DNA of 64,000 nt, from NCBI GenBank assembly GCA_013694995.1, contig JACDBH010000006.1, positions 21,435-85,434 on the forward strand. Reading direction: 5' to 3'. The stretch is from Candidatus Saccharimonadota bacterium (lineage in GTDB: Bacteria; Patescibacteriota; Saccharimonadia; Saccharimonadales; JACDBH01). A program made the translations under genes and the position numbers. Below, in pieces: positions 1,152-41,839 of the stretch. The notes under the pieces are model-generated. The model was given only the letters and a program-made list of their open reading frames with translations. It was not told the origin of the DNA and did not search any database. Numbering within the stretch: position 1 is the first letter of the stretch; each line of letters starts with the position of its first letter.

Positions 1152-1268
1152 CAATCGGCTAAACCAAGAACTTGTTCTGTTTAGACGATTGAGAGGAGCA
1201 ACCGACCAAAAAGTGAAGTTTTGGAACAAACTTGTTACAAAACAAGCTAAATAGTAGGGTTGCGACGA
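1152..1268 (+). repeat. 117-nt conserved tRNA-upstream leader element, copy A
   Basis: Aligns by eye with 41590..41706 with about 5 mismatches. It ends exactly at the 5' end of the tRNA. It contains three hairpins (AATCGgCTAAAC...GTTTAGaCGATT, CCAAAA...TTTTGG, CTTGTT...AACAAG). Confidence 0.85.
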
Positions 1269-3048: not shown

Positions 3049-3357
3049 ATGTACAAATTATTTGTAGGCGGTTTGCCGTTTTCTACTACCGAAGATGAGC
3101 TTCGCGACATGTTCGCAGCTCATGGTACTGTAGCATCAGCAATCGTCGTCAAAGACCGCGACACCGGTCGTAGCAAAGGATTCGGCTTTGTCGAATTCGA
3201 GAGCGACGACGAAGGAAAAGCTGCTGAAAAGGCCCTAAACGGCTCTGACATGGGCGGCCGATCTATCACCGTTAACGAGGCTCGTCCTCGTGAGGAGCGA
3301 CCTCGTCGTGACTTCGGCGGCGGTGGTGGTGACCGTGGTGGCAACCGAAGCTGGTAA
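3049..3357 (+). CDS. RNA-binding protein, single RRM domain with Gly/Arg-rich tail
   Basis: RNP-2 LFVGGL and RNP-1 KGFGFVEF motifs. C-terminal tail RRDFGGGGGDRGGNRSW. SD AAGGA upstream. Confidence 0.85.
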   Translation: MYKLFVGGLPFSTTEDELRDMFAAHGTVASAIVVKDRDTGRSKGFGFVEFESDDEGKAAEKALNGSDMGGRSITVNEARPREERPRRDFGGGGGDRGGNRSW

Positions 3358-3422: not shown

Positions 3423-4364
3423 CTATTGCTTTTTACTAGAAATTACCTTTGCTTTTTCGGCTCTAGCAGCTACAAAACAGCGCTCTAATGACTTTGTAAC
3501 AAATTCAGCATCATGGGTTTTGCCTAAGATACTCTGGACGGCGGCTTCAACCCTAGGGGCAAAGCGGCTGTAATGTCTTACAGCCCTAATAATAAGCTGG
3601 TCATCTAGTTCATCATTAAAAAGTTCTTGGCTAATCTGCTCAACCGGACGCGAGAAAACAGTCATATCACCGCCAGTTAATAACGCTGCTACTCGTCCTA
3701 GTTGGGCGCGGTGTCCATCGTTGCCGACTCCGACAACTTCATAAGTTAATCTATTCAGTACCCTGGAAAATATCCGCTCAGCCGGTGACATTTGGGCGTC
3801 CATCATTTCTGTAACAGTGCGGCTGAAGTCTAGGTGACGGCCTTCTTGCTGTAAAATCCTCGGTCCCGCGGTCTCAACGAAACCAACTTCCCCGTCCGCT
3901 TTTAATTCACTGAATAAACGTCGATAGACTGTAGCGGTTAGGCGCTCATGAGAGGCATGCCTACCAAAAACAAGCTTTGTCTGTGCCCTGCGTATTGAAG
4001 GAATTACAGAAGAGATGCCGCCAATTTTAAACTTGAGGCTCACAACTTCTTTTTCAGGAAGCAGTGGTTCAACACCAATCCGGCGCATAAATTCGCCTGC
4101 TATTCTTTCGTGGCCTGTTTCTTCCTGGACCCAAGGGCCATTTAAGAATTTGGTTATTACTGGGTGCAAATGCGGGCTGATAGTGGTTATTTGCTCGATG
4201 TTCAAGGGAACACTGCCCTCAATCCTATGTATTGTCTGTTGGGTCGGGCCATATTTCTCGGCTAGGTAGTCTGATGAATTTTTAAAGCCAAAGTCTATGC
4301 TATCAATAGGAATAGCGCCATCCATTTTATCGATTTTTCGCTCTAGCTCGGCAATCGTGCTCAT
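3423..4364 (-). CDS. ferritin-like di-iron carboxylate protein (acyl-ACP desaturase-like)
   Basis: Two ExxH motifs about 90 residues apart (QEETGHE and QQEGRHL), as in FA_desaturase_2-type di-iron enzymes. 313 aa. Sits immediately downstream of marR on the same strand. Confidence 0.45.
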   Translation of the reverse strand: MSTIAELERKIDKMDGAIPIDSIDFGFKNSSDYLAEKYGPTQQTIHRIEGSVPLNIEQITTISPHLHPVITKFLNGPWVQEETGHERIAGEFMRRIGVEPLLPEKEVVSLKFKIGGISSVIPSIRRAQTKLVFGRHASHERLTATVYRRLFSELKADGEVGFVETAGPRILQQEGRHLDFSRTVTEMMDAQMSPAERIFSRVLNRLTYEVVGVGNDGHRAQLGRVAALLTGGDMTVFSRPVEQISQELFNDELDDQLIIRAVRHYSRFAPRVEAAVQSILGKTHDAEFVTKSLERCFVAARAEKAKVISSKKQ

Positions 4365-4868: not shown

Positions 4869-4899
4869 TAAAGTAAACTATTATAGTATTTAGTATTTG
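4869..4899. promoter_or_regulatory. AT-rich repeat/palindrome cluster upstream of marR, candidate operator
   Basis: TAAAGTAAACTATTATAGTATTTAGTATTTG contains ACTAT-T-ATAGT inverted repeats and the AGTATTT tandem. It lies 27-57 nt upstream of the marR ATG. Confidence 0.3.
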
Positions 4900-4998
4900 T
4901 ATTGAAAATTCTAAATTTTAAGAAATCAACTCATTACCACTATCGTGGTTATGGATTTTAAAACTTGTTCCCATAACTCTCACAACTAAAACCCCTGC

Positions 4999-5634: not shown

Positions 5635-5896
5635 TAGATTAACATAGCTGTAATGTATTTAACATAAGTTATGGCACTAAAAGGCCAGTGGATTAGCCAC
5701 CGGCTCAAACCTGCTAATTATATAGATAGATATTCTTGCCAGAATTATTTATTATTTATGTAACTTCTTTATCTGGTCTTTGCCGCCAAAATGTAGTTTC
5801 ATGCTGTTCCCTCTTTAGTCCCTACTGTTTACGCTTACAAACTCGCATAAATTATAAGTAAAATAACAAAACATAAGCACTAGATCCAAATAACTT

Positions 5897-17843: not shown

Positions 17844-18097
17844 GCTCGCAACGTTTCGGCTTTTAACGGCTTCCGGTTGCTGAAACACCTCACGATGTTC
17901 TGATCACTACTTTATGCCATACCCCGAGTCTTGTCAATACAATAATATTATTATATAACATGCTTATGTTTGGTAGCCCTAGTACATTCGAACTGGAACC
18001 TACTTCTTGGGGAACTTAGTCGCTGGGTGAGTCTTCAACGTGTGCAGTAGAGGTTAAATACTCTGCCGGAACAGCATTATCTTACTTAGGGTAAATA

Positions 18098-20569
18098 TTA
18101 ACGGTAAACCGATAGGCTTGCGACACCGGCATTGTTTGCAGCGTCATAAGCCTTAACGGTAATAGTATGGGTGCCCCGGGTAGCTTTTCTAGCATTCCAG
18201 GTTGTGCTGATCACCCCATTCGCTGAGGTAGCTTTTAGGCTGCCATCGATATATATTTCCATTTTAGTAACGCCTATATTATCTGTGGCGCTGGCATTGA
18301 TGGTAAGGTTTCGAGAAACCGTTATACCATTCATGGGTGAGGATATGGAGACAGCTGGCGCGCTAAGATCGCCGGTGGGGGGTGGGGGTGGAGAAGTAAT
18401 CGTCGTGGTGCTACGGTCACCTACGAATATCTCATCAAGGTAGAAGTAGCTGCCTGCAGCGCCGTTACCGGAGCTAAAATCAACGTGGGCAAATGATGCA
18501 CCAACTGGCGCGGTCACATCTGCCTTAGCCTGCTGCCAGGTAGTGCTGAGGCTGGAGATAACTACTTTATCTGTTTGAAGATCAGTACCTGCGGCGTCCC
18601 GCCAACGCACCAACATGGTGGCGCTATTGTTGCCGCTACCGTTTTTGCCCCAGAAACTGATTGTCTTATTGCCGGTAGAAGCGGCAAAGCCGGGATGGGT
18701 GCTTAAGGTAACACCCCAGCCATAAAGGGCATCTACATTGACTCTCAGGCTGTTTGCGCCAGTTTGGGCAGTGTCGGCAGACCGGGCAATCGTGGAAGAA
18801 TACCACGCTGTCCATTTACCGATTGTATTCTCGATAGTCTGCGTGTCGGTATCAAGATGGTTCCCTGAAATTGTCGAACTTGGAGGTGGCGGTAATGTCG
18901 TGCCGCCGCCAGTGCTACCGACGCTGCCGTTAAACGTACTGGAAGCGTCCTGGTTGTATGGGGCAGCTTGCCAGGCCGTAAAGTCGATAGTACGGCTGGT
19001 ATCGTGCACCAGGAACTTCCATGGCCCTTCATAGGAATTGTTGCTGAATACGTTTCCTTGAGAAAATGTTATGGCATCACTGATCTTGAAGGCTTTATAT
19101 GGCGACCATGAAGGATAGGTACCGTAGTTGGAAATGACTGACTGGCGCGAGCAGAAATCATTCGTGCAACCTATGTTCGCTGGGTTAATCTTAAAAATAT
19201 TGTTAAAGACTTTCACGTTCTGCGTTTTCCAACGACAATTCGAGTAGTAAGGCTCTGCGTTGATCTTACCCCCTGTAGCCGGGTCACCACAATCAGTTAT
19301 ATTGGTGATAAGCTTGGTAGTATACCCACCAGAGGTGTTGGCGCTACCGTCATTGCCAAAACGGTCAGCATTTTCCCAAAGGGATATGGTTCCCCAGTTG
19401 TCTTCAAAGTAATTGCCACTTATTTCAAGGTTAGACGTGCCGGTAAGAGTCGAGCCCACCCGGCTGTCCCCACCGGATTCGGAAATGTAAACAGCAGCCG
19501 TAGGGAAGTTATCGCCGCGTGCCGCAAACTGCTTACCCTTGACAATGTTATTCCGTTTGATGGTATTGTTGCGGATGACGGCATTGTAACTAACTTCGTA
19601 AAATATAGCCTCGGCATCATTATCATTGATATAGTTGCCTTCAAATAAGAAGTCGATATCGTTCGTATCTGCCCACAATCCGACACTTTTATTGTGGTGC
19701 ACCCAGTTATTAGTGACCCGCGCGCCTTTGACGTCCCAGAATTTGCCACCACCGGTACAACCGCAGCCACTGATTTTGGATTCCCAATCGAAGGTGTTAT
19801 TACCGGTAATTTCATTATTGTCTAGTGTAATGTTCGTAATAGCTGACTCACCTGCACCAGCAGCGAGCATAGGCTTATACATACTGAAGCCGTACTGGCC
19901 GTTATCTTTGAGGCAGTTACTGCGGACGACATTGTCACTACCCACAAATACTCCTGCTCCAGCACTATTTTGGATAGTATTATTTTCGATTATCCAGCCA
20001 GTTCCACTGTCGTGATTGACCACACTTTCATTGTTATTACCACCGTCAGGACCAAAATTCTGGATAGTCAGATACTTGATCGTTACATTCGGGGCCTTCT
20101 GGGTAAAAGCGTAACGGTTTATCTTTTGCCCATCCAAAATGGCCCCTGGCGCACCGATAAAAGTCGTGCTGCTGGCGGGGATAATTTGCCCATATTCTGA
20201 TGTGCCGAGTGTGTGGATACCACTTTCTAACCAGAAGGTAGCTCCAGGCTGGTTCCAATTAAACATACTGTTATCTCCGGCTGGCACACTGATAGCGCCA
20301 CTTGGTGCGGTGCTTGGGCCAGTCAAAACGCTTGAGTTACCACAAATTACTGCAAGAGGTACCGTTGGGTAGGTAGTCAATGCAAAGCTCCGGTACGTAA
20401 AATAGCTACCTATTACCGCGAATAGAAGTATTAAAGGAATCGTGCGTTTATTGAATAGTTTGGGGCGTGTCAGCAGGCTCCCCCTACTTACCTTTTTAAC
20501 AGGAATTTTACGGCGATTGCTGGTAGCCATCTTAGGTCCTTTATGTATTGGGCGCTTTTTTGAAATCAT
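18098..20569 (-). CDS. secreted right-handed beta-helix protein with CBM4/9-like and Ig-like C-terminal domains
   Basis: N-terminal TM anchor. Repeated NN(T/S)I..N beta-helix turns. PPPP linkers. A CBM-like block (WGVTLS...YFYLDEIFVGD). C-terminal Ig-like block (ATDNIGVTKMEIYIDG). Confidence 0.75.
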   Translation of the reverse strand: MISKKRPIHKGPKMATSNRRKIPVKKVSRGSLLTRPKLFNKRTIPLILLFAVIGSYFTYRSFALTTYPTVPLAVICGNSSVLTGPSTAPSGAISVPAGDNSMFNWNQPGATFWLESGIHTLGTSEYGQIIPASSTTFIGAPGAILDGQKINRYAFTQKAPNVTIKYLTIQNFGPDGGNNNESVVNHDSGTGWIIENNTIQNSAGAGVFVGSDNVVRSNCLKDNGQYGFSMYKPMLAAGAGESAITNITLDNNEITGNNTFDWESKISGCGCTGGGKFWDVKGARVTNNWVHHNKSVGLWADTNDIDFLFEGNYINDNDAEAIFYEVSYNAVIRNNTIKRNNIVKGKQFAARGDNFPTAAVYISESGGDSRVGSTLTGTSNLEISGNYFEDNWGTISLWENADRFGNDGSANTSGGYTTKLITNITDCGDPATGGKINAEPYYSNCRWKTQNVKVFNNIFKINPANIGCTNDFCSRQSVISNYGTYPSWSPYKAFKISDAITFSQGNVFSNNSYEGPWKFLVHDTSRTIDFTAWQAAPYNQDASSTFNGSVGSTGGGTTLPPPPSSTISGNHLDTDTQTIENTIGKWTAWYSSTIARSADTAQTGANSLRVNVDALYGWGVTLSTHPGFAASTGNKTISFWGKNGSGNNSATMLVRWRDAAGTDLQTDKVVISSLSTTWQQAKADVTAPVGASFAHVDFSSGNGAAGSYFYLDEIFVGDRSTTTITSPPPPPTGDLSAPAVSISSPMNGITVSRNLTINASATDNIGVTKMEIYIDGSLKATSANGVISTTWNARKATRGTHTITVKAYDAANNAGVASLSVYR

Positions 20570-20880: not shown

Positions 20881-20955
20881 TGGTAGCGGGGCTAGGACTC
20901 GAACCTAGGACCTCTTGGTTATGAGCCAAGCGAGCTGCCGCTGCTCCACCCCGCG
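20881..20955 (-). tRNA. initiator tRNA-fMet (anticodon CAT), CCA encoded
   Basis: The reverse complement is CGCGGGGTGGAGCAGCGGCAGCTCGCTTGGCTCATAACCAAGAGGTCCTAGGTTCGAGTCCTAGCCCCGCTACCA. It has a C1:U72 mismatch and A11:U24. The 5' half is nearly identical to E. coli tRNA-fMet. Only two of the three G-C pairs in the anticodon stem are present. Confidence 0.85.
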
Positions 20956-21000
20956 TCATCGTCGCGAACGACGGTCGGCTTTTGCAAAAGAGCAATTTGT

Positions 21001-21029
21001 ATCTTATCCTAATCTGTTAAGTATGTCAA
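21001..21029 (-). promoter_or_regulatory. sigma-70-type promoter for tRNA-fMet
   Basis: The minus strand reads TTGACA (21029-21024), a 17-nt spacer, then TAAGAT (21006-21001). It lies about 45 nt upstream of the tRNA 5' end. Confidence 0.55.
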
Positions 21030-23070: not shown

Positions 23071-23171
23071 GTTAACTCCTAATTTTAAAATTACTTAAGA
23101 TGCGAACCGTTGCTGCTTTTAAGACCCTCCCTTCGGCAGGTTTATACCTACCATTATGGTATTAATTGCTT

Positions 23172-23213
23172 CAATAATCAAACCCCTTGGTGAAGCCAGG
23201 GGTTTGATTATTG
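23172..23213. repeat. perfect 16-bp inverted repeat (hairpin) in an intergenic region
   Basis: CAATAATCAAACCCCT - 10 nt - AGGGGTTTGATTATTG, located between two minus-strand membrane-protein genes. No clear U-run on either strand. Confidence 0.8.
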
Positions 23214-23226
23214 AAACGTGTAATCT

Positions 23227-23622
23227 TTAGGAGTGTATAGCGTAACGCTGAGAGTCACGGGCACCAACGTAGGCCGCAAAAGCGCCGCTTAATAGATGGG
23301 ACATGATATCCAGTCCCGTAAACCCAGAAGGCAACACGCCGACTAAAGTAGGACTGATAAGGCCAAGGATTGCAAAGCCGATATAAATCAAGCCGACACT
23401 CAGCAGTGCAGTTTTGGCCATAATCGGATCTTTGGCCATAAATCCGACATATAGCAGATAGCCGGCCAAAACCAAGCGCAGAATATCAATTGCTATATCA
23501 GAATTCACAAGCTGAAGTATCTGACCGCTTAGAAATAAGCCAACTAGCCCAGTAGCTGCAATCAAAATCCCGTAAATTCTAACTAATCTAAGTTTCATAA
23601 TATTTCTCCCTACACGACTCAA
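23227..23622 (-). CDS. membrane protein (4 TM)
   Basis: 131 aa, hydrophobic throughout. Confidence 0.55.
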   Translation of the reverse strand: MSRVGRNIMKLRLVRIYGILIAATGLVGLFLSGQILQLVNSDIAIDILRLVLAGYLLYVGFMAKDPIMAKTALLSVGLIYIGFAILGLISPTLVGVLPSGFTGLDIMSHLLSGAFAAYVGARDSQRYAIHS

Positions 23623-30844: not shown

Positions 30845-32251
30845 ATGACTGAGAGAAATAACAGCCCTAACGTTTATGGTATTGAAACCGAATATACCTG
30901 CATGCTCACACTCCCCAATGATGTTGTTCACGAACTGGTTGGGAGCTGCCACTCGGTTGACGCGCGGATTGGGCTTTATGAAGCGCCGTCTGATAAAGGC
31001 AGCTCCGCAATACAAAGTCTAAGTATATCTCGCGCCCTAGAAAAAGTGGGAATATTCAGGAACTCAACCGGCATGCTCTCAAATGGTGGTAGGTTATACA
31101 TTGATCCAAGTGGCCCGGAGTACGCGACCCCCGAGACAACCACTGCCAAAGAAACCGTTTATCGATCGTTTGACGGTGATAAGATTTTACTGGGAATTTT
31201 TGACCGATTTCGCAACGACGGGATTCTCAAAGACTTCCAAGTTAACCGGCGGATCGTGGATCATAACCGTACTTCAAGAGGCATCCACTTGAATACTTTG
31301 ACTTCTTTAAACAACAGAGGACCCGATGACCTTGTGGCTAATTGGATTGCCACACTCAATGTCGTTAAGGGTGCAATGTTCGGATCGGGGGGATTGTTAG
31401 TTGACGATAAGGGTAAGACTGCCTACCACCATTCACCTAGGCTTTCTATAACAACCGATACGACCGCTAACTACAACAAGTATAAGCAAAGACCCCTGGT
31501 TAGAGGCCCGTTTAAAGGTGATGGTAATCAGTTTGCGCGGATAGAAACCGTAACTAGTGACGCCCTTAACTTTGGGTGGCCACTGCGCGCAAGCCTGGTT
31601 GCAACCAATGCTTTTGTCGGGATATTAGAGCTGGGATATGGTGATAAGTGCCCTCGCCTTAGGAATCCAGTTAGTTCCGCGCATTTTGTAGGCAGGCTTG
31701 GTAGTGAAGGTAAGGTAGAAATTATAAAAGGCGAAAGCACTGCCACTGCCCGCCCATTAGATATAATGCGTCAAATTTGTGAAATAGTTTTAGAAGTTGA
31801 TGATAAAGAAAAGTATTTAGATAAAGAGTCGGATCAGGTAATCGGCGAGATAATCGATACGGCAGACAAAATGAGCACCGATATTTATAGCGTTGCCGAC
31901 CAAGTAGAATCCGTGGGCAGATTGGTCGCAATGCAGAGGAAAATGGATAAAGCCAAGATCGCACTAGATTCAGAAAGAATGTGTCGGTTTGATTATGCGT
32001 GGGACTGGTTAAGGGGCGGCATAGCCGAGACTTTAAGAGATAAGAGGTTAGCTGGCTGGCAGGGCTTTGGGGACACTCCGTCTGTGGCGACTGTACGCAG
32101 GAGGCTAACTACCCCTCCTCAAGACACACGAGCTAAAGTCAGGGGCGAAAATATAAAATTGAGTCATGGTACTAATGATTCCACATGGGATCAGATCGAT
32201 TTTGGTACCCACCAGCAATACGTTCATCCGTTAGATTCCCACAGATCTTAG
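30845..32251 (+). CDS. Pup ligase/deamidase (PafA/Dop) family carboxylate-amine ligase homolog, divergent
   Basis: N-terminal VYGIETEYTCM (the GxETE[FY] signature) and NGGRLYIDPSGPEYATPE (compare NGARLY.D..HPEY[AS]TPE). The GCHENY-type motif is degenerate (RGIHLNT). 468 aa. Confidence 0.7.
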   Translation: MTERNNSPNVYGIETEYTCMLTLPNDVVHELVGSCHSVDARIGLYEAPSDKGSSAIQSLSISRALEKVGIFRNSTGMLSNGGRLYIDPSGPEYATPETTTAKETVYRSFDGDKILLGIFDRFRNDGILKDFQVNRRIVDHNRTSRGIHLNTLTSLNNRGPDDLVANWIATLNVVKGAMFGSGGLLVDDKGKTAYHHSPRLSITTDTTANYNKYKQRPLVRGPFKGDGNQFARIETVTSDALNFGWPLRASLVATNAFVGILELGYGDKCPRLRNPVSSAHFVGRLGSEGKVEIIKGESTATARPLDIMRQICEIVLEVDDKEKYLDKESDQVIGEIIDTADKMSTDIYSVADQVESVGRLVAMQRKMDKAKIALDSERMCRFDYAWDWLRGGIAETLRDKRLAGWQGFGDTPSVATVRRRLTTPPQDTRAKVRGENIKLSHGTNDSTWDQIDFGTHQQYVHPLDSHRS

Positions 32252-39705: not shown

Positions 39706-40182
39706 ATGGGAATTAGAGCAACCAGCGGCCACGAATTTGGTGAACCCACCCCGCATGTAATGCGCGCGGCGGCATTTGCGCAGATAAACCAGTTTGTCCT
39801 AAATTCGGGACGCAAAGAGCAAGTTACTGAGATAATCCCGCTCGAAACCGAGCCAGAAATTGATATTGACCGACCCCCTATTAATACCGCATCGTCAACG
39901 GCACTACCGCCACTCAATTGGGACTCTGAAGCAATACAAAAACTGCGTAACTGTATTGATAAGCCACGTGGGCTATTTTTCCCCGAACCTGGCCCTAACC
40001 TCAAGGATCGTCAAAAGCTGGCTAAAGCCATCTGCGCGGAGTGTATCATTAACGACCTTTGCCTTGATGAAGCCCTGAAGAACAGTCAAAATGTTGGCAT
40101 TTGGGGCGGTACAACAAAAGGCGAACGCAAAAAGATTATCAATGCTCGCAGCCAAGCCGCCCAGGAAACTGAGGTGGCATGA
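39706..40182 (+). CDS. WhiB-like (Wbl) Fe-S transcription factor paralog 1, long N-terminal extension
   Basis: Four Cys: RNC...AKAICAECIINDLCLDEAL...VGIWGGTTKGERKKI (C-x2-C-x5-C, GIWGG turn, basic tail). SD GGAG upstream. Confidence 0.8.
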   Translation: MGIRATSGHEFGEPTPHVMRAAAFAQINQFVLNSGRKEQVTEIIPLETEPEIDIDRPPINTASSTALPPLNWDSEAIQKLRNCIDKPRGLFFPEPGPNLKDRQKLAKAICAECIINDLCLDEALKNSQNVGIWGGTTKGERKKIINARSQAAQETEVA

Positions 40183-40198
40183 ATATTAGGTATATCAA

Positions 40199-40711
40199 AT
40201 GAGCATTGAGACAGTGAACGATTGGCAGAGCAAGGAACCGACTGCTGAGGAGCTTCAACAAGTCGAATTACAAGCAATACTCGAAGCCAGGATAAAACAA
40301 ATGGATCCCGGAGACTTGAGGTATTGGCACAGCGCAATTTTGGATAGAGATTTCGAGGCAGACATTGAATTTGAAACTGAGGATCGTGTTAAGGAAGCCG
40401 CTGTATATTCAGATAATCCAATACCTACTGGAAAAACCACTGACTCCTACTGGAGGAGTAAGGGTTCTTGCCTAGGAGCAAACCTAAAATTATTTTATCC
40501 CGATAAAACCGGCAGATACGCTAGAGCAAATAACTACAACATAGTGTTACAAGCAAAAGCAATCTGCGAGACATGCGTGGTTCGTGTTGAATGCCTGGAA
40601 AATGCGCTAGAAAACAACGAGCAGTACGGCATATGGGGCGGGAAGACTGAAGATGAGCGTGACGAGCTTCTTAGGCGACAAGGTCATTCTGAACGAAACG
40701 TAAGTGCATAA
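40199..40711 (+). CDS. WhiB-like (Wbl) paralog 2
   Basis: GSCLG...AKAICETCVVRVECLENALENNEQYGIWGGKTEDERDELLRRQ. The ~100-aa acidic N-terminal extension is unrelated to that of paralog 1. Confidence 0.8.
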   Translation: MSIETVNDWQSKEPTAEELQQVELQAILEARIKQMDPGDLRYWHSAILDRDFEADIEFETEDRVKEAAVYSDNPIPTGKTTDSYWRSKGSCLGANLKLFYPDKTGRYARANNYNIVLQAKAICETCVVRVECLENALENNEQYGIWGGKTEDERDELLRRQGHSERNVSA

Positions 40712-40730
40712 ATAGGTATAATATGGCTTA

Positions 40731-41120
40731 ATGAGCCCAAACCGGATCCCAAGAGGTGATTATTACCTAGAAACCAACCCAAATGGCGAAATAAAGCCCG
40801 ATAGTTCTCAGGTGTCGATAGGCAACAGCGACAGGCGTTTAGGAGAATTTGCTTTAGGGTTAGGGCTTTGGGCTTTCGAGGAGTGGCGGGCTTATGCGGC
40901 CTGCGCGGGGCTGAATCCTGATATATTTTTCCCTACGACAGATTATGACATAGAAGTAGCAAAAGCAATTTGTGCCGACTGTGGCGTTAGTCAAGAGTGC
41001 CTCAACTATTCCCAAGAACGCCCAGAGGTATACGGCATATGGGGGGGTAAAAATAAAGCTGAACGTCGGGCCTTACGGCACAGAGAGTCCGGCCATCCAC
41101 CTGAGAAATTGGTTGTATAA
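40731..41120 (+). CDS. WhiB-like (Wbl) paralog 3
   Basis: AACAGLNPDIFFP...AKAICADCGVSQECLNYSQERPEVYGIWGGKNKAERRAL. TATAAT (40717-40722) lies 8 nt before the ATG. Confidence 0.8.
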   Translation: MSPNRIPRGDYYLETNPNGEIKPDSSQVSIGNSDRRLGEFALGLGLWAFEEWRAYAACAGLNPDIFFPTTDYDIEVAKAICADCGVSQECLNYSQERPEVYGIWGGKNKAERRALRHRESGHPPEKLVV

Positions 41121-41129
41121 TATATCCTA

Positions 41130-41453
41130 ATGAGGAAAGAAACCCCATCTTCAATCGAAGCAGATCCGCCGCTTCATCCAGCCCAGGCAGCAGAACTTGC
41201 AAATGCCAGAGAGGCCTTTGAACTAAATAAAACTGATGAGTTGTGGAAGGAATTTGGATACTGCGCAGGCAAGCAAAAAGAGTTTATGAAAAACAGTATA
41301 GCCGCAACAGCTATGTGCGATGTCTGTTTGGTCAAAGTTGAATGTCTGGAATTCGCAATTGAGAATAATCAGAATTTTTATATTTGGGGCGGCAAAACAC
41401 CTTCAGAACGCAAACGCCTGATCAAACGGCGTAACCAGGCCCCCAAGAAGTAA
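41130..41453 (+). CDS. WhiB-like (Wbl) paralog 4
   Basis: GYCAG...ATAMCDVCLVKVECLEFAIENNQNFYIWGGKTPSERKRLIKRR. TATAAT (41116-41121) lies 8 nt before the ATG. Confidence 0.8.
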   Translation: MRKETPSSIEADPPLHPAQAAELANAREAFELNKTDELWKEFGYCAGKQKEFMKNSIAATAMCDVCLVKVECLEFAIENNQNFYIWGGKTPSERKRLIKRRNQAPKK

Positions 41454-41589
41454 ACTTCTGTCCATACCAGACCTAATCTGCTATAATTTCCCTGTTAAAA
41501 ACAGCTTTTAGCCAAAATACCAAACCAGTTCGCTTGTCGAATGTTTTTGGATTTTGAGAGGAGATGGCTTGTAGGGTCTGTAGTTTTAA

Positions 41590-41706
41590 CAATCGGCTAA
41601 ACCAAGAACTTGTTCTGTTTAGACGATTGAAAGGAGCAACCGACCAAAAAGTGAAGTTTTGGAACAAACTTGTTACAAAACAAGCTAAAAGGTCGGGTTG
41701 CGACGA
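41590..41706 (+). repeat. 117-nt conserved tRNA-upstream leader element, copy B
   Basis: About 95% identical to 1152..1268 and ends exactly at the tRNA 5' end. The track ORF 41473..41667 (minus) lies within it and is rejected. Confidence 0.85.
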
Positions 41707-41782
41707 GGGGGCGTAGCTCAGTGGTTAGAGCAGAGGACTCATAATCCTTTGGCCGTTGGTTCAAGTCCAACCGCCCCCACCA
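41707..41782 (+). tRNA. tRNA with CAT anticodon, probably tRNA-Ile2 (lysidine-modified), CCA encoded
   Basis: GGGGGCG/TAGCTCAGTGGTTAGAGCA/GAGGA-CTCATAA-TCCTT/TGGCC/GTTGGTTCAAGTCCAAC/CGCCCCC-ACCA. The D arm, anticodon loop, variable loop and T arm closely resemble E. coli ileX. The Ile2-versus-Met assignment is inferred only. Confidence 0.8.
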
Positions 41783-41839
41783 AGCATAAGCACAATGGCT
41801 TCAGAGACTGGAGTCATTTAATTTTGTTATAGTTAGCAT

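Follow-up and report, generated by a model that had tools for sequence, protein, structure and literature searches.

The closest described counterparts of the locus analysed here are the STAB-SD elements and 5' hairpin stabilisers of B. thuringiensis cry3A and of B. subtilis aprE and hbs, which combine a strong, untranslated Shine-Dalgarno-like (SD-like) sequence, without a usable start codon, with a 5'-proximal hairpin; a STAB-SD is bound by the 30S subunit and acts as a barrier to RNase J1 (PMC4113751). The leader described below is predicted to share these features and belongs to a clade that keeps RNase J; unlike the known stabilisers, this putative one precedes a tRNA rather than an mRNA, has a second, long hairpin after it and can occur as two or three modules in tandem. 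A second parallel is the 3'ETS-leuZ of E. coli, a tRNA spacer that reportedly acts as a sponge, together with other ETS-derived small RNAs; the element described here is likewise a conserved non-tRNA part of a tRNA primary transcript that processing enzymes could release, but it lies on the 5' side and in a different phylum. The leaders of rrn transcripts present a hairpin (boxB) and then a short conserved unpaired motif (boxA) just past a stable-RNA promoter, a layout that recurs here, although the motif, compared by eye, shows no evident match to boxA and the transcript is very short. REP, BOX and Correia-type repeats and MITEs resemble the element in being hairpin-rich units (here about 130 nt) with more than one near-identical copy; in contrast, the element has no terminal inverted repeats or target duplication, its two copies in 64 kb lie at the same position relative to a tRNA, and its stems covary between lineages. 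To our knowledge, there are few descriptions of single bacterial tRNA genes with long 5' leaders of conserved structure, and we are aware of almost no study of RNA metabolism in CPR bacteria. In this report, we describe such an element. It is a genuine tRNA 5' leader with a conserved structure and without an Rfam entry; it is restricted in lineage and is dispensable.

The stretch of DNA that was analysed (the window, 64,000 nt) contains only three tRNA genes, all with the anticodon CAU (ARAGORN and Rfam), and this anticodon is shared by every tRNA in the window and in all relative loci that were fetched. The initial annotation had reported a gapless repeat of 117 nt (1152-1268 and 41590-41706) with about five mismatches, both copies ending at position -1 of a tRNA. 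The repeat is real, with exactly 4 mismatches in 117 positions, but it does not start at 1152 and 41590: the homology extends 13 nt further 5', so that 1139-1268 (copy A) and 41577-41706 (copy B) align without gaps and with 7 mismatches in 130 positions (1142, 1144, 1151, 1193, 1252, 1253 and 1256 in copy A; 95% identity). Both copies do terminate at position -1, since ARAGORN and Rfam place the starts of the CAU tRNAs at 1269 and 41707, and the Met-like and Ile2-like identities proposed for these tRNAs hold because their best annotated E. coli matches are tRNA-Met (84%, copy A) and tRNA-Ile (87%, copy B). A 38-nt piece of the element matches the window exactly twice, an outcome given by none of 100 dinucleotide shuffles. 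Logan contigs from the same sample end within each copy (L002 at about window position 1181, and L004 beginning at about 41660) because unique k-mers are exhausted there, which lends independent support to a true two-copy repeat. With filters off, a covariance model applied to the 64 kb found the two copies, a tandem module upstream of copy B and one weak hairpin (23160-23263), and no further full copy within the window. The features are as follows.

1102 to 1130, + strand: predicted tRNA-Met promoter (TAGCCA, 17 nt, TATATT, with a TG extension; promoter scan)
1139 to 1151, + strand: unpaired 5' end of the leader, copy A (start of homology with copy B; fold)
1152 to 1191, + strand: first hairpin (HP1), copy A (fold; compensatory changes against L016)
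1192 to 1198, + strand: AGAGGAG, an SD-like motif abutting the 3' side of HP1 (motif search)
1198 to 1263, + strand: HP2, copy A, a long hairpin with imperfect pairing, GCAACCGACC...GGGUUGC (fold)
1264 to 1268, + strand: GACGA linker between HP2 and the tRNA, common to all family members
1269 to 1345, + strand: elongator tRNA-Met, CAU (ARAGORN, Rfam, E. coli comparison)
20881 to 20955, - strand: initiator tRNA-fMet, CAU (ARAGORN, Rfam; begins CGCGGGG, as initiator tRNAs do)
20956 to 21029, - strand: tRNA-fMet promoter and short leader (TTGACA at 21029-21024, 17 nt, TAAGAT at 21006-21001)
41479 to 41487, + strand: extended -10 box TGCTATAAT of the tRNA-Ile2 unit, with TTCCCTGTT next to it (read by eye and from alignment with the tRNA-Met promoter of L013)
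41494 to 41576, + strand: additional module 5' of copy B (weak match to the covariance model at 41501-41567, 18.4 bits; manual stem check; motif)
41577 to 41706, + strand: leader copy B (unpaired 5' part, HP1 at 41590-41629, AAAGGAG at 41630-41636, HP2 at 41636-41701, GACGA at 41702-41706)
41707 to 41782, + strand: tRNA-Ile2, CAU, lysidine type (ARAGORN, Rfam, E. coli comparison)
41794 to 41818, + strand: terminator-like hairpin after tRNA-Ile2

The arrangement of predicted promoters and terminator-like hairpins places the element at the start of short transcription units. The extended -10 box of copy A, TGCTATATT at 1122-1130, is followed by the C-rich GACCCCTG, and the homology between the copies begins 8-9 nt past this box, at the predicted transcription start; the same arrangement of -10 box and CCCCTGT recurs at the tRNA-Met genes of the relatives L016 and L013. 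The -10 box of copy B precedes the shared part by about 90 nt, and the consensus scan, which called no sigma-70-type site before copy B, is silent at this box because there is no -35 match. Terminator-like hairpins lie downstream of the tRNAs; the one 3' of tRNA-Ile2 indicates a single-gene transcription unit, and each of the tRNAs looks like a unit of this type. tilS and ftsH lie immediately before the window. Identical proteins assign the window, which derives from a Saccharibacteria MAG, to record JAITZI010000001.1 of GCA_020063845.1, and the homologues carry the annotation Candidatus Saccharibacteria or Saccharimonadaceae. It is highly probable that, in a sub-lineage of Saccharibacteria, the element forms the entire transcribed 5' leader of tRNA(CAU) units with one gene each; from the sequence we infer the transcription start (about 1137 for copy A and about 41494 for copy B), the RNase P cleavage site and the binding of the leader by 30S subunits.

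A further feature of these tRNA promoters is the sequence (A)ACAGA(T/C), which lies about 10-11 nt 5' of the -10 box, often with CCCCTGT 3' of the box, at 1110-1130, 21019-21001 (minus strand) and 41468-41487 in the window, at 679-705 and about 2840-2865 in L013 and at 1828-1850 in L007. It may be a lineage-specific stable-RNA promoter element; a search for AACAGAT as a shared promoter motif was undiscriminating, with the loose pattern matching elsewhere in the window as well.

From 5' to 3', the order of parts is the extended -10 box, 13 unpaired nucleotides, an HP1 with a bulged CA, the motif A(G/A)AGGAG, an HP2 of about 66 nt, GACGA and the tRNA, and the same fold layout is predicted for copies A and B (z-scores of -3.7 and -4.5). 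In copy A, HP1 is built from a lower stem CAAUCG/CGAUUG, a middle stem CUAAAC/GUUUAG, a 5' bulge CA, an upper stem AGAA/UUCU and a loop CUUG. HP2 spans 66 nt and is closed by the stem GCAACCGACC/GGUCGGGUUGC; its base is an intact stem of 10 bp in copy B, and its lower stem is weakened in copy A by three substitutions (1252, 1253 and 1256). The element had previously been thought to fold into three hairpins. The first of these is HP1 and stands; the second and third are an alternative to one long HP2, which we prefer because folding predicts the long hairpin and because it fits the substitutions seen in a relative. Upstream of copy B, the extra module contains a diverged HP1 at 41513-41556 (CAAAAU..CCAAAC-CA-GUUCG..AUUUUG), followed by AGAGGAG at 41557-41563. 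The leader is modular, with one or two units of HP1 and A(G/A)AGGAG, then HP2 and then GACGA.

To determine how far this architecture extends, the window can be compared with two other lineages, represented by the MAG Candidatus Saccharibacteria RYN_425 (L013; contig JAQGHE010000015.1) and by the Logan-assembled contigs L016-L020. A peptide-seed scan of 185,579 species genomes found a single locus, that of RYN_425, the seeds being blind to leaders with a differing HP2, such as that of L016. In RYN_425, UUGAGAGGAG and the 5' strand of HP2 match the window at every one of 40 nt, the 3' strand of HP2 has 7 changes and a 1-nt deletion, GACGA is kept, and the initiator tRNA follows GACGA after 3 nt. 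The position of HP1 is taken there by a different hairpin, whose lower stem is that of the upstream module of copy B, and a second tandem upstream module contains a clear HP1 homologue, recovered by the covariance model, and then CAAGGAG. In L016-L020, the synteny of tilS, HisPhos and tRNA-Met is as at copy A, with 61% identity of HisPhos, and the leader of about 140 nt consists of HP1, UUUUGAGAGGAG, a long hairpin with a different interior, CCGACGAG and tRNA-Met. The element is thus conserved in relatives, an absence of which had been named beforehand as an argument against function: versions occur at the orthologous tRNA-Met of the Logan-assembled relative and at the initiator tRNA of RYN_425. 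The same comparison does not support the proposal that the element is attached specifically to the elongator CAU tRNAs, since in RYN_425 the same 3' domain precedes the initiator tRNA and in the window the fMet leader resembles a remnant of it. This fMet leader is about 39 nt long and ends GCCGACC-GUCGUUCGCGACGA-UGA, its promoter and trailer are common to L013, and the GCGACGA noted earlier 3 nt upstream of the fMet tRNA is indeed present at 20959-20965; judged by its sequence, the leader looks like an HP2 from which the interior was deleted.

The leader is not found at all CAU tRNAs. In L007, where the neighbouring abhydrolase has 80% identity and tRNA-Ile2 is positioned as at copy B, a TATAAT lies only about 9 nt before the tRNA and tRNA-fMet has a very short leader, so that the element is absent from both tRNA-Ile2 and tRNA-fMet. 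Because of this absence, and because the window fMet leader lacks the interior, the leader is not universally required. The idea of a conserved, co-transcribed 5' leader is sustained by the homology that starts 8-9 nt after the predicted extended -10 box and by the structure kept in relatives, with the amendment that the leader is dispensable. Synteny walks from the abhydrolase and HisPhos homologues led in most relatives to other neighbours, and only L007/L009, L028 and L016-L020 were informative. Among JGI metagenomes, an exact 22-mer of the invariant block had no match; the pattern GCGACGA-NNN-fMet had a single match there, in a high-GC organism without a related leader, which we took as chance.

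Several observations point to selection on the RNA structure. Folding z-scores range from -3.7 to -7.0 across the leaders. Between the window and the orthologous L016 leader, 5 of the 16 pairs of HP1 are changed on both sides and none is broken, and the closing stem of HP2 carries a C-G to G-C swap (RNAalifold, six sequences). L016 and L017 differ by two population SNPs within HP2, G.U to G-C and U.G to U-A. Of the 7 positions in HP2 at which L013 departs from the window, each lies in a loop or bulge or preserves its pair. In a manual table of five distinct HP1 versions, the stems differ and are fully paired except for one imperfect pair, in the middle stem of the module upstream of copy B; the lower stems read CAAUCG/CGAUUG, CAAAAC/GUUUUG, CAAAAU/AUUUUG and CUAAUU/AAUUAG, and the core AAAC-CA...GUUU is present in 4 of the 5, the hairpin of the L013 second module keeping only the lower stem, without core or bulge. 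The SD-like motif lies directly 3' of the hairpin in all five. Taken together, the compensatory changes and pair-preserving SNPs are good qualitative evidence, from three lineages rather than from R-scape-type statistics, that selection probably acts on RNA pairing.

The conserved unpaired motif resembles a ribosome-binding site. A(G/A)AGGAG could pair over 7-8 nt with CUCCUUUC, the canonical bacterial 16S tail, taken here in place of the organism's own 16S rRNA, which lies outside the window, and the A/G difference between the copies (GAGAGG against GAAAGG) keeps this pairing through a G.U. The motif is present in every long-form leader, namely the two window copies, the fMet leader of L013 and L016-L020; in the window, TTGAGAGGAG is confined to these leaders by motif search, and AAGGAG is a genuine Shine-Dalgarno sequence for some window genes. 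Fold prediction makes it partly accessible, with a mean unpaired probability of 0.62 for AGAGGAG of copy A and a range of 0.4-0.7 for the motif, and the predicted promoter puts it about 55 nt from the start of the copy A transcript. The nearest start codon lies at 14 nt (GUG) or at 0 nt (AUG, copy B upstream module), and the motif thus has no start codon at a working distance and no conserved ORF.

This bears on the idea of a small protein gene, which would consist of a 41-aa or 50-aa ORF across the element or of an inner GTG ORF and which we consider the least probable of all the explanations. One frame is open over the whole element in both copies, and the ATG of copy B follows GAGAGGAG. The GTG ORFs of 13 and 21 codons noted at the outset are present as described in copies A and B, each forming the last part of a longer, in-frame ORF (1129-1254, 41 aa; 41564-41716, 50 aa). 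However, start and stop positions differ between the copies, the SD spacing is 0 or 14 nt, and substitutions track RNA pairing and not codon positions. Protein coding was rejected because none of 5.8 billion clusters shares even three 5-residue words with the translated 50-aa frame and because in L013 a 1-nt indel breaks the frame, the ORF there continuing through the tRNA; the earlier judgement that coding is unlikely was sound.

A leader that senses a ligand or a tRNA, in the manner of a riboswitch or T-box, and so tunes the supply of CAU tRNAs is only slightly less improbable. It would account for a compact, conserved 5' leader fold associated with all three CAU tRNAs of the genome, yet no terminator or expression platform lies between leader and tRNA, and the interior of HP2 is not conserved in L016. 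The repeated 130-nt leader contains no AUG that could serve as a T-box specifier. The search of Rfam 15 suggested in the initial annotation returned no leader family, only the three tRNAs reaching the gathering threshold, and at E up to 10 the window and L013 leaders gave nothing plausible, with neither a riboswitch nor a T-box. By-eye comparison of the leader with the T loop, D loop and anticodon of the tRNA gave only short, inconsistent matches, and such pairing was set aside.

Recent copying of the leader from one CAU-tRNA gene to a neighbouring one, with gene conversion as the most likely route, best explains why the two copies are nearly identical. The paralogues in the window are 95% identical while the orthologous L016 leader has diverged far more, so the window copies were homogenised recently; judged from these sequences, the 95% identity would reflect recent copying and not constraint on each base. 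The copied unit runs from about the predicted transcription start to tRNA position -1. Gene conversion among the CAU tRNA genes is plausible because they neighbour one another in these genomes, at spacings of 20 kb in the window, 2.2 kb in L013 and 1.6 kb in L007. The genes span 1269-41782 in the window, and pairs of them span 809-3166 in L013 and 175-1933 in L007, which suggests that the CAU tRNA genes of Saccharibacteria share a conserved neighbourhood. We infer that the leader is a mosaic, in which HP1 of copy A is orthologous to that of the L016 Met leader and HP2 resembles that of the RYN_425 fMet leader, with the shared UUGAGAGGAG as a possible recombination joint. The L016-L020 contigs pass through the leader and stop only within the tRNA, which fits a single leader copy in that organism. 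All five of these contigs (Logan, samples SRR336962xx) stop about 60 nt inside tRNA-Met, a common end that suggests a repeat or a strain junction within the 3' half of this tRNA gene in that organism.

Copying of this kind raises the question of whether the leader is a functionless spacer or small palindromic repeat, spread by gene conversion between similar adjacent tRNA genes, with hairpins kept as self-maintaining palindromes. Its patchiness (absent at Ile2 and fMet of L007, interior-deleted at the window fMet, at other tRNAs in other lineages), the very high paralogue identity and an HP1-like hairpin without a tRNA at 23171-23212 would all be expected of such a spacer. We nevertheless regard it as unlikely, because compensatory changes and pair-preserving SNPs indicate selection on pairing, the SD-like motif and GACGA are retained while stems change, and 3 of 3 full long copies abut a CAU tRNA. 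Scattered copies, which would have marked the element as a generic repeat or MITE, were not found: the 64 kb contain no other copy, and blastn against phage and plasmid collections gave no match. The ends, GUCUAUUG... and ...GCGACGA, are not complementary, so there are no terminal inverted repeats, and no flanking target duplication is visible at either copy. Scans of viral contigs for the hairpin, the peptide seeds and the HP1-SD pattern were all empty, and with the phage, plasmid and viral collections empty, a mobile or phage origin is unsupported. The weak model match at 23160-23263 was judged a terminator-like hairpin and rejected as a family member, since it lacks the CA bulge and has neither an SD-like motif beside it nor a tRNA. 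Within it, 23171-23212 is a near-perfect 42-nt hairpin, CAAUAAUCAAACCCCUUGG...CCAGGGGUUUGAUUAUUG, directly after the stop of the minus-strand ORF 23227-23622; it scores weakly with the leader model (22.7 bits) and is probably a terminator.

For the function of the leader, we rank first a 5' protective, 30S-docking module of the STAB-SD/aprE-leader kind, made up of HP1 and the untranslated SD-like motif, because A(G/A)AGGAG is the most conserved unpaired feature, follows a hairpin near the predicted 5' end and has no usable start codon. By analogy, the 5'-proximal hairpin and a docked 30S subunit would block 5'-end-dependent decay by RNase J, which could give a longer-lived pre-tRNA or a longer-lived released leader. 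HP2 would keep the leader as a closed domain and leave only GACGA single-stranded for RNase P, whose predicted cleavage site the linker would abut. CPR genomes retain rnj, rnc and pnp (PMC12641178). We put this module forward tentatively, as a possibility that ranks first and is still more likely to be wrong than right: a stabiliser is less obviously sensible on a fast-processed tRNA precursor than on an mRNA, and it does not explain the invariance of the HP2 5' strand over 40 nt between the window and RYN_425. The combined account, of a leader that was copied recently and acts as a stabiliser, is the best explanation as a whole, and we hold it with somewhat less than even confidence. If the HP1 and SD module does protect or regulate a pre-tRNA, a Gram-positive mRNA-stability device would extend to a stable RNA in reduced-genome CPR bacteria; a restriction of the leader to the three CAU tRNAs would argue for coordinated control of the AUG- and AUA-reading tRNAs; and if neither holds, the locus is a tidy case of gene conversion between neighbouring tRNA genes.

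After the protective module, we rank second a trans-acting leader, then the non-functional conversion product, an antitermination or RNase III signal, the sensor and the small ORF. For a trans-acting leader, RNase P would free a stable RNA of about 130 nt, which would act through the SD-like motif or the HP2 5' strand and, as a sponge or decoy, could titrate the anti-SD of the 30S subunit, an SD/GGA-binding protein or some other RNA. The HP2 strands differ in their conservation between the window and RYN_425 (0 of 40 positions changed on the 5' strand, 7 of 45 on the 3' strand; Fisher p = 0.013), and this asymmetry hints at a possible additional sequence-specific partner. A 40-nt strand that is 100% identical in two lineages whose tRNAs and HP2 3' strands differ fits such a partner, the copied unit is the predicted RNase P product, each leader carries one to three SD-like motifs, each after a hairpin, in a sponge-like layout, and the compact hairpins would shield a free RNA. 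At the orthologous L016 site, however, the HP2 sequence is different, so an HP2 seed is not conserved across the family, and we judge the trans-acting leader rather unlikely.

A transcription or processing signal could take the form of boxB/boxA-like loading of Nus factors or of RNase III sites that order pre-tRNA maturation. The first form draws on the hairpin and conserved unpaired motif right after a stable-RNA promoter, as in rrn leaders, and the second on HP1 and HP2 helices of about 16 bp or more in a group whose genomes keep rnc. Compared by eye, however, A(G/A)AGGAG has no evident match to the boxA consensus, which is GCUCUUUAACAA-like, and transcripts of 200-300 nt should need no antitermination; such a signal appears improbable to us. 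A more far-reaching proposal has about the same low standing: the leader might be a previously undescribed structured RNA class that serves only the CAU tRNAs, namely the initiator, the elongator Met and the Ile2 tRNA. Through contacts of its SD mimic and its invariant HP2 strand with the 30S subunit or a specific partner, it would tie the supply or maturation of the tRNAs that decode AUG and AUA to the translation machinery. Under this proposal, the unit may also spread between tRNA genes as an RNase P-released RNA, given that the copied stretch begins at the transcription start and ends at tRNA -1.

Other features of the window were recorded alongside the leader. Fragments resembling the 3' end of tRNA-fMet (...GCTACCAA) occur at 17963-18041 in the window (minus strand), about 2.9 kb downstream of the fMet gene, and downstream of that of L013 at 3320-3340, 4163-4191, 4877-4906 and 5812-5849; they resemble remnants of att sites left by elements that integrated at tRNA-fMet, and a gene of 823 aa (18098-20569) lies between the window tRNA-fMet and its fragment. 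About 40% of long ORFs have no Shine-Dalgarno match, and in several of them only 6-10 nt separate a TATAAT-like box from the ATG (e.g. 41840, 26673 on the minus strand and 47991 on the minus strand), which suggests frequent leaderless mRNAs in the window. Directly 5' of copy B lie four tandem WhiB-family genes (158, 170, 129 and 107 aa; 39706-41453), which are absent from this position in L007, and together with a Pup-ligase homologue at 30845-32251 they form a set of Actinobacteria-like features.
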